Origin: Opitutales bacterium
GTDB lineage: Bacteria > Verrucomicrobiota > Verrucomicrobiia > Opitutales > PNEW01
Assembly: GCA_963692525.1 (NCBI GenBank)
Contig: OY829953.1
Span: forward strand, 4,420,720-4,484,719
DNA length: 64,000 bases
Direction: 5' to 3'
Part shown: positions 11,302-55,680 of the stretch, piece after piece
Layout of the letters: the number at the start of each line of letters is the position of its first letter
Position numbering within the stretch: the stretch's first letter is position 1
Notes under the pieces: model-generated
The model's database searches: none
Seen by the model: the letters and a program-made list of their open reading frames with translations, nothing else
What the model was told of the DNA's origin: nothing
Position numbers and translations under genes: made by a program

Positions 11302-11404
11302 CGTATATTTTCGTGTGAATTAAATTGCATCAGTGACAGATAACAGTCCAAGTTAAAAACGCCATGTTTATTAAATCAACCCATTAAGTTTCGGACTGAT
11401 TCTT

Positions 11405-11538
11405 TTTGTCATCGCGAGGCTGATTGTCAGCCGTGGCGATCCAGGGGAATATCGGACGCATATTGTAAGCCCCCTGGAATGGAAGATGTCGCTACGCTCG
11501 GTAGCGGCAGTCGGCCACGCCTCCTTCGCAATGACAAG
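11405..11538. repeat. Hairpin element of the 'gtcatcgcgag / cgatccagg' family carrying a 25-nt module insertion
   Basis: Same element as 50311-50421, but with 'ggaagatgtcgctacgctcggtagc' (11481-11505) inserted in the right arm. Confidence 0.8.
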
Positions 11539-11790
11539 ATTGAATAATGATGGGAGAAGACGCTCTGAGAAAAAGTAATGGAGGGCCACGCTCCGTCGTG
11601 GCCGTTAATTTTAAAATTAACCCTACATATCTTATTATAGGAATATAGAAAAAGGTTATATTAAAGAAATAAAGGGACGAAGACGAAGCTGTTTCGATAG
11701 TAGGTCACTCATCTTCTCATTCACGCATATCCCTTTTGACTTTTTGACTATTATCATGTGATTTTAGGTTTTAGAGATGGGAGATAAATT

Positions 11791-17000: not shown

Positions 17001-17418
17001 GTGCTTAGCCATAAAAAGTTAGCCACAAGAGACATGAGAGGCACAAGATTAAATTATTTCAGTAGAGCGGTCCAACATCTTTCATTCCAGAGGCAGTCAT
17101 TGTGATTACGAATACTAGTCTTTGCACTAGAACATGGGTAACTTAATATATAGTGAAGACAGGCAAACGTCTACTGAACGAAGTTTTACATCCCGGGACT
17201 GTGGTTACGCAACAGACATTCCCCTGGAGTGGAAGATGTCGCTGCGCTCGGTAGCTTCGTTGTTTCACTCCTCGCAATGACAATAGTGGGGCGGGCTGCC
17301 TGGCTCTCCGACTTGAAAGATGTCGTTCCGCTATTGCGGAACTCGGAACTGGTCCTCAGGCCTTCCGGCCATTTGGCTTTCTCGCCATCTGGATGTCAGG
17401 CCTTCCGGCTTTCTATTC
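17001..17418. repeat. Composite of repeat modules
   Basis: 'tagccacaagag..aggcacaag' words (17001-17048); a half 'caatccagg/gcaatgac' arm with an inserted 'ggaagatgtcgctgcgctcggtagc' (17212-17285); a hairpin module (17312-17352); 'ccttccggctttc' words (17353-17418). Confidence 0.7.
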
Positions 17419-23572: not shown

Positions 23573-23928
23573 AGAAAGAGATAGCCACAAAAAGCACAAG
23601 ATGCACAAGAAATAAAATTATGAACTCAAGAACTCAGGAATTTAAGAAAGTTAACCACGAATGAACACGAATAAACACGAAAATAATATTTAGAGAAAAT
23701 TGAATAGCCACAAAAAGCACAAAAGACAAAAAAATTAGAAATATATTTAATAGTAAAATTGAATATTTTTGCCTCTATTTTCGTAACTAGTTATTTCCAC
23801 TCTCTAATTATTCGTGCTATTGGTGGATGTTGTCCCGCAACAGCGGGCCTCGGTAGTGTTCATTCGTGGTATATTCTCTCACCATAATCTTTTCTGTGCT
23901 TTATGTGCCTCTTGTGGCTATCTCTTTT
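23573..23928. repeat. Nested palindrome filling the intergenic region between the GH-like paralogs
   Basis: Outer arms are 'agagatagccacaaaaagcacaag..' (23578-23612) and 'tgtgcctcttgtggctatctct' (23893-23925). Inner arms are 'aaccacgaatgaacacgaataaacacgaa' (23653-23681) and 23811-23870, the latter split by a hairpin module at 23827-23855. Confidence 0.8.
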
Positions 23929-27887: not shown

Positions 27888-28080
27888 AGACCGGAGGGCC
27901 GGAAAGCCAGAAAACCGGATATCCAGTTCCGAGTTCCGCCGTCGCGGAACGACATCTTCCAAGCCAGCGTTCCGGAAAGCCGGAAGACCAGACAGCCTGA
28001 TAGCCAGAAAGCAGTGATTAGTAAATTATCTAGTGTTAGAGCTCCTGCCTTTTGACCTTTTGACTTTTTGACATTTTGAC
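27886..28080. repeat. Composite: 'ccggaaagcc' words - hairpin module - 'ccggaaagcc' words - TTTTGAC array
   Basis: Hairpin module at 27923-27965 (stem gttccgc/gcggaac). Flanking purine-rich words at 27886-27919 and 27966-28012. 'ccttttgaccttttgactttttgacattttgac' at 28047-28080. Confidence 0.75.
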
Positions 28081-29267: not shown

Positions 29268-29465
29268 GTGTTAAGTGTTAGGTGTTATGTTTTAAGTGGA
29301 GAAGGGTACAACCAGGACATCATTTACAGATTTAGTTCAAGACATGGTTTACACTTTGTGAGTAATGCTGAACGGTAATCGGGTTCTCCGTTTTGGAAGA
29401 TGTCGTTCCGCAACTGCGGAACTCGGTACTGGCCTTCTGGCCCACCGGTTTTCTGGTTGTCAGGA
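29267..29465. repeat. Composite of repeat modules
   Basis: 'gtgttaagtgttaggtgttatgttttaagtg' (29267-29298; rc copy at 40331-40368). Hairpin module at 29393-29432. 'ggccttctggcccaccggttttctgg' words follow. Confidence 0.65.
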
Positions 29466-33496: not shown

Positions 33497-33757
33497 GCCG
33501 GAGGACCGGAAGGCCAATACCGAGCTCCGCAATCGCGGAACGACATCTTCCAAGCCGGAGAGCCAGTTTTTATTAAATAAGGTGGAACGCGCTGCCTGAC
33601 CGACATAGCCTTGGCGACGGCTGATCCCTAGCCCGTTTAATTAATGCGATACTCTCAAACGCGGTAGGGACACCGCGTTCCACCATTGCAAAGATAATCT
33701 GAAAGTATTAATTTCCGTTACGTAAAATCCGAAATCCGCATTCCGAAATCCGAAATT
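33496..33757. repeat. Composite: word array, hairpin module, interrupted terminator stem and 'aatccgaaatccg' words
   Basis: Hairpin module at 33514-33556. The 11-bp stem 'ggtggaacgcg' (33581-33591) / 'cgcgttccacc' (33674-33684) encloses an 82-nt insert. Word array at 33726-33757. Confidence 0.7.
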
Positions 33758-33760
33758 GGC

Positions 33761-35974
33761 TCACTCAATAGTGATCTCCTCGGTAACAACCTCGATCGGA
33801 TCGCCATCTTCATTGGCGAAGGTGGCGTCGATGCTCAGTGTCGGCTGGGGAGTGTTGTCTGATTTGAAGTTGTTCTGGGTGATCAGGGTCTCAAATCCTT
33901 TCGTCGTCGATCCGCTCTCCGCAACAACAACCGCGGCGCCATTTGTCTGCAGGAGGTCACCACCGGTGATTCTCAACCCGGGATTGCCGGCTGCTACGGT
34001 GAAGGAGCCTTCACCGAAGAGAATGTGAGGTACTGCATCGCCATCAGCATCGATATCACCGATGGTTAAGCGCACCGCGATCGGCACGCCGCGCGCATCA
34101 ACACCGACCTTGCCCGTGCTTCCACTAAACGTGGTGTTCGATAACTGTACCCCTCCCAGTCCCGTGGAGTTGACTACTTCCACGAGGGCCACATCGGCCT
34201 GGGCGTCATAGACCTGTCCTTCGGGGAACAGCGCCTGGTTAAAGGCGTTGATCGTGCCTACGGTGAAGATGCTGAAGAAGGTATTGGCATCCGCGCCGTC
34301 GATGACCACGCTCGGTTTGCCCGTCACATACTCTACGGTCTGGTTGTAGCGTGGGGGGATAGATGGGGGCAGGAAGGTAGCCGGGTCGAGGGTTACGGTA
34401 AAGTTCCCATTACCTGAAAATTCTACCTGCACAATATCCTCGGTTTCATCCATAAAGGAGACGCGTGTAATCTGTCCCGGTTTGGCCTGGAGTTGGACAG
34501 ACTCTCCGGTGAGTAAAATCTGGTCGAAGACATTACCGTTGGCATGCTGAATATTCTCACCGGCGATATCGCCCGAGCCGTCGAGAACGAGGGGAATAGC
34601 CGGGGCCGCTACCGTGACGACCGCGGTTTCGCTGTCCGCTGTCCCGCCGGCGTTAGTTATCTGCACCCAGAAGCTTGTGCTCGCGGTGAGAGCGCCCGTA
34701 TCCAGGGTGCCAGCGGTCGCACTGGCGACGGGACTGGCGGTATCGCCACTGTTGCCGGTATACCACTGGTAAGTAAGATCATCACCGCTGGCGGCCACTG
34801 ACAAGCTCGCCGAAGCGCCAGACTGCACTTCCTGGCTTGCCGGTTGCGTGGTGATAGTGGGTGCATCAGCGGGCGGGGGCCCCTCACCGCCACTGCCGGG
34901 CGCGCCGATCGGGGTAAACCCAAAAGTGTCTATGACTGTCCGGCTTCTCGCTACATTTAAATTGGGATTGTCTTTAACAATCAGTCTGCTGATACCGCCC
35001 GGAGCTCCCAATTCAACTGCATTGATCGTTAAAAAAGGGGGTTTGAATTCAAAGCGTAGAGCACCAGAAGCCAAAAAATCCGTAAAAGTAGCAATCAGGT
35101 TATCATCAGTATCATAGACTTCAATCGAGCCATCGGATTCTGAAGAGCTTGATAATAAAAGTGCGCCTGCATAAGTATCTATTTCATAAGCCGGGGTTTC
35201 AAAGACAACTTCGAATGAGTCGCCATTAACTTGAATCCCAAAGGACAGTTCTCCCGAATGAGTGGGGTTTTCTGATGCTCCGGACATAATTATACCGCCT
35301 TCAAAAGAAGCAGTATAGGGTGATGTCCCAATAACAATGGGTTCGAACTGTCCAAGACCTACACTGAATTCATCAAAATAAGTATAAACCGTGTTATTGG
35401 ACGGTCTGGACGTAAGCGTGAAGCCCAGATCGTCGATGGATAATTTACCTGTAACATTTTTAATTTTTAATTCTCTGATGCCATCGATAAAGTCAAAGTC
35501 GTCGTTATCGATAAAAATACCACTGTCTGCAATACCACTCTGTAAGGGGGGATTTGCACCGGGGCTGATATTATTGGGCAAACCATTGACTACGCCATTG
35601 TCGGCGAGAATGATTCCTATAGTTCCATCAGCTAGAATGTAGTTTCCTCGGTACTCGATTTTGCCTGCTCCCGTATTCTCAGCCGCATAGAATTGGATTT
35701 CATCAAGTCCTCTTTCCGATACAATTACCCCCTCCTGACCAGGCCCGAGAGTTATCGCCTTTGTTCCGGAGTGTAAGAGCGCCGGATCTTCCAGCGTTTC
35801 CACGGTGAATCCGACTAACTTGACCCTGTTGGGTTCCTCCCCAATGAAAAATTGTCCTTCACCGCTGATGTCCTCGAAATCGGTGAACACCTCGAGATCT
35901 TGCGGAAGAGCTGAGAGTAACACCGGAAACAGCAAGTAAATTAAAGATAGTGATACTAGATTTTTTGTGCGCAT
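33761..35974 (-). CDS. Secreted Ig-like surface protein, paralog C (intact)
   Basis: 737 aa with a signal-like N-terminus and an Ig-like block. The C-terminal ~385 aa are about 93% identical to paralog B. Confidence 0.8.
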   Translation of the reverse strand: MRTKNLVSLSLIYLLFPVLLSALPQDLEVFTDFEDISGEGQFFIGEEPNRVKLVGFTVETLEDPALLHSGTKAITLGPGQEGVIVSERGLDEIQFYAAENTGAGKIEYRGNYILADGTIGIILADNGVVNGLPNNISPGANPPLQSGIADSGIFIDNDDFDFIDGIRELKIKNVTGKLSIDDLGFTLTSRPSNNTVYTYFDEFSVGLGQFEPIVIGTSPYTASFEGGIIMSGASENPTHSGELSFGIQVNGDSFEVVFETPAYEIDTYAGALLLSSSSESDGSIEVYDTDDNLIATFTDFLASGALRFEFKPPFLTINAVELGAPGGISRLIVKDNPNLNVARSRTVIDTFGFTPIGAPGSGGEGPPPADAPTITTQPASQEVQSGASASLSVAASGDDLTYQWYTGNSGDTASPVASATAGTLDTGALTASTSFWVQITNAGGTADSETAVVTVAAPAIPLVLDGSGDIAGENIQHANGNVFDQILLTGESVQLQAKPGQITRVSFMDETEDIVQVEFSGNGNFTVTLDPATFLPPSIPPRYNQTVEYVTGKPSVVIDGADANTFFSIFTVGTINAFNQALFPEGQVYDAQADVALVEVVNSTGLGGVQLSNTTFSGSTGKVGVDARGVPIAVRLTIGDIDADGDAVPHILFGEGSFTVAAGNPGLRITGGDLLQTNGAAVVVAESGSTTKGFETLITQNNFKSDNTPQPTLSIDATFANEDGDPIEVVTEEITIE

Positions 35975-36099: not shown

Positions 36100-36270
36100 A
36101 AGACCAGCGTTCCGGTTCCGAGTTCCACAATCGCGGAATGACGTCTTCCAAATCGAAAAACTGAATTGATAGAGGATGCAAATTTCACTTCGAAACCCGT
36201 TAGGCACAATCTGCAATCCAATATCCGCAATCAGCAATTGTCTGGCTTTTTGACTTTTTGACCTTTTGAC
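36100..36270. repeat. Composite of repeat modules
   Basis: Hairpin module at 36112-36154. 'caatctgcaatccaatatccgcaatcagcaattg' at 36207-36240. 'ggctttttgactttttgaccttttgac' at 36244-36270. Confidence 0.7.
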
Positions 36271-40054: not shown

Positions 40055-40130
40055 TACTTCTTCTTATGCTCCCACAAATTAATCTCAAGAATTAAGAATA
40101 GAGGTCAAGCGGTTATGTGGACGGAGGGGA

Positions 40131-40415
40131 GAAGGTGTCGGGTTTCAGGTGTCGGTGAAGCGGGTTCCCATCGACTACGCTCAGTGTAGACAGGTTTCAG
40201 AGTTTAGCCGGAGTACCGGTTCCGAGTTCCGCCTTTGCGGAACGACATCTTCCAAACCAGACAACCGGAAAGTCGGAAGGCCGAGGTACGAGATAGGCAA
40301 CTTGTCCTAAGCCCAGTACCTGGAAACTATCTTCACTTAAAACCTAACACCTAAAACTTAACACGCGCGTAGCGCTCCCCTCCTTTTGACTTTTTGACAT
40401 TTTGACATTTTGACC
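40131..40415. repeat. Composite of at least five module types
   Basis: 'gaaggtgtcgggtttcaggtgtcgg' (rc copy at 45879-45907). 'gggttcccatcgactacgctcag' follows. Hairpin module at 40213-40258. 'cttaaaacctaacacctaaaacttaacac' follows. TTTTGAC array at 40382-40415. Confidence 0.75.
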
Positions 40416-40420
40416 AAATC

Positions 40421-41308
40421 TCAAGCTCGATTAACGAGGTAAATTCCGTATGCGACGAAGATTGCGCCAAAGGCAAGATTGATCGTAATTGGTTCATTCA
40501 ATATGAGATAGCTCAACGCCACACCAAAGAGCGGGGTCGCGAAAAAAAACGCAGTTAGTTTTGTCGGGCTGTGTTGTTTTAAGATAAGTGTCCAGCAGAC
40601 GAAGCAAAAACCTCCCACGACAAGCCCTTGATAAACGATTGCCAGCAAAGCAATGGGAGTAAAATGATAACTATCCAATCCTTCGAAGCAAAAACTGAGA
40701 CCAAAAAATATCGGAAGACTTATAGCCATTTGCCAAATGAGCAGTCGATAGATATTTATATGTTGAATGAGAAGTTTTGTGTAGATATTACATATACCGA
40801 GAACAAAAGCACTCGCTAAGACGAAAAGGTCACCAATTAAAAAATCACTCCCTAAAGAAAAATTAGCGCGGAAAACAATAATTACCCCGATAATTGCAAC
40901 CAATAAGCCTAAACACTTTTTCAGATTTAATTCATCACCTTTAAAATAGAAATGAGCCAGCCCAGCAGTAAATAATGGATTTATGTTGATGAGAATAGTG
41001 GTGTGCGAGGCGTAGGTGTAGTGCGTTCCAATATTTATAAGCCCAATCTGTGTAGTGAATAACAACGACATGATAAGAAGCAGAATTCTCTCTGATTTAG
41101 GCGGCATTATCGGAATCCGGTAAATTACTGCCCAAAGAATAATCCCCAGGATTGCCAGTGAAAAACGAAGCCCGCCAACCATAAATGGCGGCATATCGAC
41201 GAGGGAAGTTTTGAGCGCTACCGAATTCCCACCCCAGAGAAATCCGAGAAAAAGCGCTATCGCTATGACCTTTGCACTCGGCTGATCAACCGGTATCGTT
41301 TTTTTCAT
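40421..41308 (-). CDS. EamA/DMT-family transporter
   Basis: 295 aa, about 10 TM segments, AT-rich. Confidence 0.8.
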   Translation of the reverse strand: MKKTIPVDQPSAKVIAIALFLGFLWGGNSVALKTSLVDMPPFMVGGLRFSLAILGIILWAVIYRIPIMPPKSERILLLIMSLLFTTQIGLINIGTHYTYASHTTILININPLFTAGLAHFYFKGDELNLKKCLGLLVAIIGVIIVFRANFSLGSDFLIGDLFVLASAFVLGICNIYTKLLIQHINIYRLLIWQMAISLPIFFGLSFCFEGLDSYHFTPIALLAIVYQGLVVGGFCFVCWTLILKQHSPTKLTAFFFATPLFGVALSYLILNEPITINLAFGAIFVAYGIYLVNRA

Positions 41309-48528: not shown

Positions 48529-48663
48529 AAAGCCGGAGGACCAGAGAACCAGAAGACCGAAAAGCCGTAGGACTAGTGAGAGAGGGTGGAAGATGTCGAG
48601 CTACGCTCTCGGTACGGGGTTCAGAGGATAGTGAACAGTGAACGGTAAACAGTGAACAGTGGG
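48529..48663. repeat. Left flank of cassette 2: 'ccggaggaccag' words, hairpin-type module and 'gtgaacagt' array
   Basis: Module 'gtggaagatgtcgagctacgctctcggtacggggttcagagg' at 48586-48627. Array at 48631-48663. Confidence 0.8.
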
Positions 48664-48678
48664 AAAATGATTGACGCC

Positions 48679-49113
48679 CTACAGGGTGAAATAATCGGCG
48701 TCATCTTCTTTAATAATAAATGGGAATTTCTCACAAAATGATGCGGACTTGTCTATCATGCTATTCAACATACGTCCGATTTTGGAAAGCTTTTCACATA
48801 GCTTGTTCGAATTATCATCACTTAAATACCCGCTATCTACAGCAGTCTCAATCCAATGCTGCGTTTCATATTGTTCAGCATCTGCATCTGTAAGTTTACT
48901 CACAAAATGTTTCTCGTAACGTCGTTTCCCCCATGCTTCCGCTATTTGGGCCCCAATCGATCTTGACGATCTCCGCACCTGGTCAGTAAGTGAATAGATT
49001 TCTTCCATTGGGAATTGTTTTGAGATAATGAAGATTTCCTCAGCAACATTCCTTGCTTTCTGATAAACGATCAGATCCCTGAAATTTACAGCGTGCGGGT
49101 TTCTCTGCATCAT
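48679..49113 (-). CDS. Four-helix-bundle protein (23S rRNA intervening-sequence protein / Avd-like family)
   Basis: 144 aa. A 57-aa central block is identical to 21370..21801. Confidence 0.85.
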   Translation of the reverse strand: MMQRNPHAVNFRDLIVYQKARNVAEEIFIISKQFPMEEIYSLTDQVRRSSRSIGAQIAEAWGKRRYEKHFVSKLTDADAEQYETQHWIETAVDSGYLSDDNSNKLCEKLSKIGRMLNSMIDKSASFCEKFPFIIKEDDADYFTL

Positions 49114-49123
49114 CAGCTTCCCT

Positions 49124-49249
49124 CTTACTGTTCACTGTTTACTGTTCACATCTAACTATCGGCATTTTTCCTGAACCCTGTACCGAGGGCGTAGTCCGAC
49201 ATCTTCCACTCTGAACCCTTTCTCACTGTTCACTGTTTACTGTTCACAG
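49124..49249. repeat. Right flank of cassette 2: 'actgttcac' array, inverted hairpin-type module, second 'actgttcac' array
   Basis: 49127-49149 is complementary to 48631-48663 with 1 mismatch in 23. 49170-49210 is the inverted copy of 48586-48627 (about 37 of 41). A second array lies at 49222-49249. Confidence 0.8.
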
Positions 49250-49257
49250 ATTACTGA

Positions 49258-50274
49258 TCAACTCGTCCAGACTTCACGGAAGAGTCGCAGCCAGTTTCCG
49301 CCCAGGATAAGGGTGATGTCGGCTGGCTTGTAGCCCCGAGCGAGGAGTGAATCGGCGAGGGCGGGCATCTTATCCGGTGTTTCCAGTCCTTTGGGCGCAT
49401 GTGCTAATTCCGCATAACCTTTGGGTCCGTCGAAAAAAGTGGAAGGGAGTTTTGTCCCCTGCTGCGCACCGATGTAATTCCAGAATTCCTGTGGCTGATC
49501 CTGAGTAAAGTCCGTTCCGAACCCCACGTGTTCAACACCGATTCGTTGAACGAGGTCGTCAATCGCGTCTACGAAATTCTCGATCGTGGATTCGCGGCCA
49601 GCGGGCAGAAACATGTTGAATGCCGTCGCGCCACACACGCCCCCTCGATCCGCCAATAATTTCAGTGCTTCATCCGTTTTATTTCTCGGGTGCATGTGAA
49701 AGCTCTGCGCATTGGCGTGCGTGCAGGCGACCGGTTTGCTCGACATCTCAATCGCATCGATCGTTGTCCGTTCACCACAGTGGGAGAGATCAATCAATAT
49801 ACCCAATCGGTTCATCTCATGCACTGCGTCGATACCAAAGTTGCTGAGGCCGGCATCACCGCGTTCCAAACAACCATTGCCGATAAAATTTCGCTCGTGA
49901 AAAGTGAGTTGCATGATGAGCACACCGAGGGAGCGAAACAGTTCGATGCGCCGCAAATCGTTTTCAATCGGAGTCGCGTTCTGCCATCCCAGAATAACAC
50001 CGACTTTACCGTCCTGCTTTGCTTTCAGGATGTCATCTACGCTGTTGACTTGAATGATTTGTGCACTTCGCTCCCTGAAAATATCCTGCCAGTCAGCGAT
50101 AGTGCCCAAAGTCTGTTGAAAATTTTCCCACGTCACGAGGGTCGCATTTATCGCAGTGGTACCGCTTGCGGCCAGACTCTCATAGACGGCGGGACTCTTC
50201 CAATTACTCACATTAAGCGCATCGATTACAATCGCTTCATCGTAGATTTCTTTCGCAGTATTTTCTTTTGGCAT
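49258..50274 (-). CDS. Membrane dipeptidase (peptidase family M19)
   Basis: 338 aa with VIDALN.. and DLSHCGERTTIDAIEMSSKPVACTHANA blocks. Confidence 0.85.
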   Translation of the reverse strand: MPKENTAKEIYDEAIVIDALNVSNWKSPAVYESLAASGTTAINATLVTWENFQQTLGTIADWQDIFRERSAQIIQVNSVDDILKAKQDGKVGVILGWQNATPIENDLRRIELFRSLGVLIMQLTFHERNFIGNGCLERGDAGLSNFGIDAVHEMNRLGILIDLSHCGERTTIDAIEMSSKPVACTHANAQSFHMHPRNKTDEALKLLADRGGVCGATAFNMFLPAGRESTIENFVDAIDDLVQRIGVEHVGFGTDFTQDQPQEFWNYIGAQQGTKLPSTFFDGPKGYAELAHAPKGLETPDKMPALADSLLARGYKPADITLILGGNWLRLFREVWTS

Positions 50275-50285
50275 TGTCAGTTTCT

Positions 50286-50602
50286 GATTTACGATTGTCG
50301 TTTGATTCTATTTGTCATCGCGAGGCTGCTTGTCAGCCGTGGCGATCCAGGGGAATATCGGACGCATATTGTTAGCCCCCTGGATTGCCGCAGTCGGCTT
50401 CGCCTCCTTCGCAATGACAAGAGAGAATGCAGGATACATGTTGTAAGATTCAAGATTATCCCTAGCGGTTGCCACTTTTTTTTATGACCACATACTCGCA
50501 TTTCCGCATTCACGCTTGTCCGCTTTTTCGCATTTCCCTTTTTGACATTTTGACCTTTCTTGCCGGCCATAGCCTTGGCGACGGCTGGTGACTTTTTGAC
50601 CC
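50286..50602. repeat. Composite: word arrays + 111-bp 'gtcatcgcgag / caatccagg' hairpin element + TTTTGAC arrays
   Basis: The element at 50311-50421 is the uninterrupted version of 11405-11538. 'ggccatagccttggcgacggctgg' at 50565-50588. TTTTGAC words at 50538-50556 and 50590-50602. Confidence 0.8.
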
Positions 50603-55587: not shown

Positions 55588-55680
55588 CACTTCCGAGTCC
55601 CGCAGCTGCGGGACGACTTCTTCCAAAGACGCATAAAGATTAAGGGGAAAGGATTGCCAATTAAATTTCAATGACAATAT
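55588..55680. repeat. Hairpin module plus a degenerate 'ggattgcc..caatgacaat' arm
   Basis: 'cacttccgagtcccgcagctgcgggacgacttcttccaaag' at 55588-55628 (stem gtcccgc/gcgggac). Confidence 0.6.

Follow-up and report, generated by a model that had tools for sequence, protein, structure and literature searches.

Modules of 23 to 34 nucleotides, probably acting as discrete insertion units, are nested within other repeats of an Opitutales genome

The genome of the Opitutales bacterium studied here (G000) is a single contig of 4.49 Mb with 45% G+C, and the window that we analysed is a stretch of 64,000 nt within it (contig OY829953.1, positions 4,420,720 to 4,484,719). Besides genes, among them those for a 1107-aa protein and for a 144-aa four-helix-bundle protein of the 23S-IVS type, the window contains two plus-strand copies of one hairpin element, here called A (11405-11538, family TTGTCATCGCGAGG...CCTTCGCAATGACAA) and B (50311-50421). 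Their identity as one element, proposed in an earlier sequence-only reading, was confirmed: A and B are close paralogues, and the sequences quoted in that reading are found as given at all four of its sites. Both copies fold as long hairpins (z = -5.6 for A and -5.9 for B). Their pairwise alignment contains a single 23-column gap, with 72 of 74 bases identical to its left and three mismatches in 35 bases to its right. The net insert of A (GGAAGATGTCGCTACGCTCGGTA, 11481-11503, plus strand) lies in the right arm between CCCCTGGAAT and GCGGCAGTCGGC and reads GGAAGATGTC-gctacgc-TCGGTA; the corresponding empty site of B is located between T50386 and G50387 (CCCCTGGATT/GCCGCAGTCGGC). An insertion of 25 nt had been proposed here. 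The insertion stands, but its length is 23 nt, because the final GC is part of the host, all empty arms having it within GCC or GCT. Position -2 relative to the junction differs as well, giving GGAAT in A and GGATT in B. Roughly 11 bases to the left of the TTGTCAT terminus (window 11394-11404; consensus ATTGATTCCnT) are kept in most type-1 copies of the hairpin; since this left flank (ATTGATTCC) is kept across copies, it is part of the element, which thus reaches past its inverted termini on one side.

Taken by itself, the A/B pair gives no direction for the event. In the sister species represented by the MAG CBDCNV01 (G001), whose counterpart of the 1107-aa window protein is 97% identical, the orthologous copy of A is filled too, which dates the insertion into A to before the species split. 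The orthologous G001 spacer contains no copy of B. The counter-case that the sequence-only reading had set against its own proposal, a 23-nt segment that the A/B lineage had from the start and that B lost by precise deletion, finds some backing in these data: A is filled in both species while B exists in G000 only, and the similarity of B to A equals that between the two A orthologues. The loop of B is of the derived type common to both A orthologues. However, B lacks both the 'ctgA' change common to the A orthologues and the changes specific to A of G000, so that it must have separated earlier than the two species did and is not a copy of the filled A. Moreover, the left arm of A is of the empty type (GCGATCCAGGGG), which leaves the module without a partner within the hairpin. 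Deletion requires more steps, since it would also have had to restore a T at position -2, as found in the empty arms described below, and the exact period of the repeat arrays. We therefore regard it as very improbable; the best explanation is that A was hit before the two species separated and that B is an unhit old sister copy.

The 23-nt segment has many relatives. With up to three mismatches, the 25-mer of A occurs twice in the window against 0.00 expected (100 shuffles), and the resemblance between inserts pointed out previously is thus far above chance; with up to four mismatches, it has 36 genomic copies (the short-core type). A relaxed pattern, GGAAGATGTC followed by 4-19 nt and TCGGTA with one mismatch allowed per flank and a pairing core required, identified 112 copies in the G000 genome, with core lengths of 7-19 nt. 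These modules measure 23-34 nt and consist of a conserved 10-nt 5' flank, a GC-rich hairpin core of variable sequence, and a conserved 6-nt 3' flank, TCGGTA or TCGGAA. The 7-nt cores read gctgcgc and gctacgc, the 9-12-nt cores gagctacgctc, gggctacgccc, ggacttcgtcc and gccttcggc, and the 18-nt cores gtcccgcaactgcgggac and gttccgcgattgcggaac. As the two flanks are mutually non-complementary, the module has a polarity. Analysing 57 distinct 27-mers from three genomes, we found 86.8% of cells in the 4-bp stem of the 11-nt cores to be paired, compared with 36-66% in slid controls. This stem also covaries, with 22 double-change cells against 5.6 in shuffles and none of 500 shuffles as high. The earlier description as a 'hairpin module' suits the long relatives, which have an 18-nt core and a 7-bp stem (z = -2.4), but it barely applies to the 23-nt form, where a 5-bp stem is obtained only with the host GC counted in (z = -1.05).

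Further modules lie elsewhere in the window. The copy at 17231-17253 (plus strand, GGAAGATGTC-gctgcgc-TCGGTA) occupies the same arm position as the module in A, CCCCTGGAGT/module/GCTTCG. The same module type at an equivalent site had been recognised here (as 17231-17255), correctly; its host is not a half-element but a 5'-truncated representative of the 243-nt long form of the same hairpin family (17060-17283, plus strand), with a decayed module remnant in the left arm and a filled right arm. A paralogue at genome positions 1121164-1121406 is in the opposite state, with a module in the left arm and none in the right, and the whole 17.2-kb element is missing from the orthologous G001 spacer. 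A related module placed by the same reading at 23827-23855 is indeed related, but runs from 23825 to 23855 (plus strand); it is a 31-nt variant with a different 5' flank (GGATGTTGTC-ccgcaacagcgggcc-TCGGTA) in an ATTCGTG-type word array. CCGG-type arrays carry long-core modules at 17315-17348 (plus strand, 34 nt, GAAAGATGTC-gttccgctattgcggaac-TCGGAA), 27927-27960 (minus strand, gttccgcgacggcggaac, conserved in G001) and 29395-29428 (plus strand, gttccgcaactgcggaac). Others of the long-core type are found on the minus strand at 33518-33551 (gttccgcgattgcggagc), 36116-36149 (GGAAGACGTC, with one flank change) and 40220-40253 (gttccgcaaaggcggaac); for the first and last of these three, the orthologous G001 spacer has been rebuilt, so that it fails to align cleanly over the first and does not align over the last. 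A 34-nt module at 55591-55624 (minus strand, core gtcccgcagctgcgggac) sits in a CACAAG-type host (CTTT/module/GTGTTTCTTGTG) and is conserved in G001. Finally, the 23S-IVS-type gene cassette has as its left outer arm a 27-nt module at 48588-48614 (plus strand, core gagctacgctc) whose context is of the GGGTTCA type, and the inverted partner of this module lies on the other side at 49181-49207 (minus strand, 27 nt, core ggactacgccc). The gene in this cassette (48679-49113, minus strand) is surrounded by inverted GTGAACA arrays, with the inverted modules outside them.

Genome-wide, modules reside in at least five unrelated classes of host repeat, with exact junctions and one fixed orientation per host. 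In the hairpin family TTGTCAT(T/C)GCGAGG...CCTCGCAATGACAA (the TTGTCATTGCGAGG hairpin family for short), both arms serve as hosts, with the junction CCCCTGGA(A/G)T/module/GCC or GCT; modules in the left arm are the reverse complement, so that the GGAAG end faces the hairpin tip in every case. The remaining hosts are GGGTTCA heptamer arrays (GGGT/module/CA), CGAT-type arrays (CGATTT/module/CGAT), CACAAG-type arrays (GCCTTT/module/GTGGCTATC) and CCGG-type arrays (GGCTT/module/CTGG). For 56 modules, joining the two flanks retrieved paralogous empty sites elsewhere in the genome. The base 5' of the module is T, the sole exception being one C among 45 filled hairpin arms, and comparison of filled with empty junctions revealed no duplication of the target. 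One base gives way to the module in arrays, GGGT-T-CA turning into GGGT[module]CA and GATTT-N-CGAT, with any N, into GATTT[module]CGAT. This loss was seen at every filled array site checked and is common to unrelated host classes. Because empty arrays keep their exact period and filled ones are one base short, the events are insertions and not deletions. Each host class has its own module subtype. By eye, no guide-like pairing of cores with their targets was found. Attempts to bring all hosts under one junction rule, by assuming a TA target, by counting the preceding T as part of the module, or by letting two bases be replaced, gave none that fits arrays and hairpin arms together.

In the hairpin arms, length is preserved on filling, with the module between GGA(A/G)T and GCC. 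Scoring these arms across the genome, as the sequence-only reading had suggested, gave 45 filled and 58 empty arms and corroborated a preferred site after T without target duplication. The dinucleotide at positions -2 and -1 is AT in 33 filled arms, GT in eight, TT in two, and GG and AC in one each; in empty arms it is TT (44) or TC (14). Position -2 is therefore a purine in 43 of the 45 filled arms as opposed to T in 58 of 58 empty ones, with two departures recorded besides: an empty arm reading GGAAT/GCC at genome position 2140829 and a filled GGATT arm in another genus. A purine at -2 creates a stem mismatch next to the insertion point, which may reflect a need for a locally unpaired target. 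The same arm position has received at least 20 distinct cores of three length classes. Among 39 paired hairpin elements of at least 90 nt, modules are absent from 20, fill one arm in 16, and fill both arms in three (for example, genome 2826792-2826957, with the left core ggcccgcagttgcgggac and the right core gctgcgc). In these three elements, the two cores differ and cannot pair with each other, and symmetrisation of the palindrome did not give rise to them. The type-1 subfamily contains three pairs defined by their loops, namely A/B, 242362/813033 and 1350752/804463, in each of which a filled copy stands beside an empty one.

Comparison with 1.2 Mb of G001 sequence allowed us to follow individual sites between species. 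Coding DNA of G000 and G001 is collinear and about 92-97% identical, and the spacers are largely rebuilt; different repeats occupy the same gap at, for instance, window positions 11546-11775, 17030-17388, 33500-33800, 40100-40450 and 50257-50588. A whole-region gap scan consequently returned mostly noise, and constructs of filled and empty flanks were used instead. Where the flanks of a module could be aligned, it was mostly present in both species (34 of 38 scored from G000 and 32 of 48 from G001), and several of the 'empty' calls proved to be paralogues. Module activity is thus slow or past. Four orthologous sites nevertheless show exact presence or absence. In each, G001 is filled and G000 is empty: a 24-nt module opposite G000 4298413 (net +23, one T lost); a 34-nt module at G001:C2:1656088 opposite G000 2210091 (GGCTT[module]CTGG versus GGCTT-T-CTGG, flanks 96.7% identical over 1.2 kb); a 23-nt module at G001:C2:1489584 opposite G000 2065225 (CCTTT[module]GTGG versus CCTTT-T-GTGG); and a 27-nt module at G001:C2:945198 opposite G000 252764 (flanks 94% identical). 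At the second site, the spacer of G002, a more distant relative, is plain AT-rich sequence free of repeats, which agrees with an insertion. In addition, the locus G001:C2:1442809 contains two identical modules and G000 none, and at G000 4376495 a module together with two heptamers has no counterpart in G001. For hairpin-arm sites, no orthologous filled/empty pair was found between G000 and G001, the 'empty' calls there all being paralogues.

The module appears to be restricted to a few relatives. Using the A element, module included, as query, we found matches in G001 and in G003, which belongs to a different genus of this family; the incomplete G002 matched weakly, and 17 other Opitutales genomes did not match. 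A scan of 185,579 species for the exact 11-nt-core module returned CBDCNV01 and CBDANS01 alone, the latter likewise a MAG labelled Opitutales bacterium; at loci of CBDANS01 and of G003, the same modules sit in the same hosts. The host hairpin family is far wider in distribution than the module. Its outer arm (TCATTGCGAG-N10-ACGAAGCAATCC) recurs in more than 120 stretches from many phyla among the matches listed, including Bradyrhizobium, sphingomonads, Rickettsiales, Spirochaetes, Fibrobacter, Helicobacter and Anaerolineae, among others. A literature search with the host arm sequence retrieved chance primer matches only.

Since each host class has its own subtype and filled hairpins are themselves multi-copy, composite copying or gene conversion may explain some of the spread. 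Carried further, this would mean rare founder insertions, multiplication of most filled copies as composites or by ectopic gene conversion, and no dedicated machinery today. Several observations agree with such a history. Junction quirks are constant within a class, both the purine at -2 of filled arms and the single base lost in arrays. In G001, at least ten type-1 hairpins are filled and match A at 82-91% identity along the full 135 nt. Moreover, G001:C2:1267197-1267340 comprises three tandem 57-nt units of module plus CCGG spacer, compared with one at G000:C1:4401820, which indicates that module copy number changes by tandem duplication as well. On the other hand, composite copying and gene conversion leave unexplained the many cores of three length classes found at one arm site and the one-base loss common to unrelated host classes, and they sit poorly with the alternation of filled and empty states within the three type-1 sub-lineages. 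At two of the orthologous insertion sites, furthermore, similarity to other filled sites extends over just 5-8 nt, too short for homologous conversion. As an account of most filled copies, we consider this history unlikely.

Selection might instead keep or create the module in place as an immobile functional site, such as a protein-binding site, a terminator or an RNA motif. The flanks are conserved in two genera despite the fast turnover of spacers, and the covariation of the core stem would suit a functional structure. Yet a 16-nt asymmetric pair of flanks is implausible as some 110 independent creations, orthologous sites differ by exact all-or-none indels, and modules lie inside the stems and arrays of other repeats, where they break the host structure. 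In agreement, no Rfam family reached the gathering score within the window. An exclusively functional origin thus has very little probability in our view; function and mobility of the module can coexist.

Considering the evidence together, we conclude that the 23 extra bases of A are probably a copy of a lineage-specific family of 23-34-nt non-autonomous insertion modules that act as discrete units. The diverse hosts, the reuse of sites, the orthologous indels and the array period all support the original proposal of a small module that is moved or copied into a preferred site inside another repeat.

We compared this family with known systems. The closest match in behaviour is provided by the small dispersed repeats (SDRs) of Nostocaceae; SDR4, SDR5 and SDR6 were reportedly described by Elhai and colleagues in 2008 in Nostoc punctiforme and relatives. 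Both kinds are dispersed, mobile-like and protein-free units of similar size (20-30 nt for SDRs and 23-34 nt for the module with its 112 copies), and both insert exactly at a fixed position inside another repeat, with empty sites known. According to one article, the insertion point of SDR5 lies precisely after the third base of HIP1 and before the fourth (PMC4390886), and another gives SDRs as seen in Nostocaceae only (PMC5861425). HIP1 is not over-represented in the 4.49-Mb genome studied here (143 occurrences). The two kinds differ in that SDRs belong to heterocyst-forming cyanobacteria and the module to Opitutales (Verrucomicrobiota), and in that the module has cores of 7-19 nt, several target classes each with its own subtype, and one base replaced in arrays. 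Their sequences are apparently unrelated.

REP, BIME and REPIN-RAYT systems share with the module the form of short, high-copy extragenic hairpin repeats arranged in mosaics, the lack of target duplication, a conserved unpaired motif beside a covarying stem, and a genome that encodes Y1_Tnp proteins. However, there is no conserved GTAG 5' of the module stem, where GGAAGATGTC is found instead; GTAG arises downstream of the stem alone, and there only in copies whose TCGGTA is followed by a G of the host. Module flanks are also asymmetric and longer, modules are nested at exact sites in other repeats, and none flanks a Y1 gene, the sole RAYT-like gene having its own palindrome and an in-frame stop. 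MITEs differ from the module by its non-complementary flanks, the absence of target-site duplication and the base lost in arrays; inverted termini are present in the host hairpin, unlike the module. PATEs of the IS200/IS605 group resemble it in inserting 3' of a short target without duplication, in hairpin dependence and in their single-strand logic. They are, however, 100-300 nt long, have hairpins at both ends and use a target of 4-5 nt, whereas the module has one hairpin in 23-34 nt, only T is common to all targets, and one target base is lost; the lagging-strand bias of PATEs is likewise absent from modules. Many modules reside in GGGTTCA, GTGAACA and octamer arrays, which are of the same kind as the STRRs of cyanobacteria and the TAACTGA repeats that MacGregor and colleagues are said to have described in 2013 in Beggiatoaceae; such arrays are hosts and not the module. 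Membership in REP/RAYT, MITE or IS200/IS605-PATE groups fails in each case on at least one defining feature tested. The modules are a new family of very small mobile repeats, of a kind that is known but very poorly understood.

Searching for a mobilising gene, we identified six Y1_Tnp (PF01797) matches in G000, three of which are proteins of 326-347 aa with that domain alone. All six are more than 3 kb away from the nearest module. The one RAYT-like gene of classic size (G000:C1:4038331-4038675; locus L031 1285-1960) has an in-frame TGA and is flanked by inverted CCCACAGC..GCTGTGGG palindromes of its own, unrelated to the module; the palindromes read ACCCACAGCTTAAGCTGTGGGCTA and CCCCAGCGGGGTGACAC. 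Y1_Tnp is present in 12 of 21 Opitutales genomes, nine of which gave no match to the A element. A RAYT/IS200 link is thus unsupported, none of the Y1_Tnp genes being near a module, the classic-size one having different palindromes of its own, and the domain being present also where the A element is unmatched. Replication-strand bias is not seen either, with 52 copies having their top strand leading and 60 lagging and no host class biased, in a genome of weak GC skew.

Modules lie within 500 nt of four of 16 23S-IVS-type genes, against 0.46 expected for random positions that treat coding and intergenic DNA alike. Matches to PF05635 (23S_rRNA_IVP) number 18, 14 and 14 in G000, G001 and G003, respectively, 0-7 in 17 other Opitutales and zero in the incomplete G002; this enrichment in module-bearing genomes is a lead rather than a test, the genomes being related.

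Four IS3-family copies in G000 (G000:C1:2764826, 3845951, 3997603 and 4256900), identical over the 60 flanking bases compared, contain a 24-mer that resembles the module, GGTAGATGTCgcttacgcTCGGTA; it lies between orfA and orfB and immediately follows the A8 slippery run there. An 84% identical paralogue at 4325426 is without the 24-mer and has one extra base at this place; the insert alters the frame relation of orfA and orfB.

A mechanism consistent with mobile modules can be sketched. A trans-acting factor common to the three genomes of this Opitutales family might recognise the two asymmetric flanks together with the hairpin and would copy or paste the module, probably as single-stranded DNA, into unpaired T sites; the target repeats would be those able to fold or slip themselves. 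Within a host class, further copies probably come from composite copying and gene conversion. As to the enzyme, a protein of the HUH/Y1 type is our best guess, a tentative one. A bolder reading, which we hold to be rather improbable, sees a new mechanism: site- and structure-specific insertion of a DNA hairpin shorter than 35 nt, with one target base replaced and no duplication, with subfamilies matched to their target words by guide-like recognition and with a protein common to the three module-bearing genomes as the factor. Candidates for that factor would be the 326-347-aa Y1_Tnp-domain proteins and the expanded 23S-IVS four-helix-bundle family.

To our knowledge, mobile DNA of fewer than 40 bases is almost undocumented, the cyanobacterial SDRs having stood nearly alone since 2008 with no mechanism found. 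The modules rank among the smallest known mobile DNA, and the Opitutales family adds a second, apparently unrelated system with clean junctions and a reproducible signature, namely insertion after T, no duplication and one base replaced. Several target classes, polymorphisms between sister species and the small number of genomes in which to search for a factor make it more tractable. Repeats of this sort also call for caution, as they create spurious ORFs and disturb the alignment of intergenic DNA. In this lineage, the modules account for much of the mosaic, fast-changing character of the spacers.
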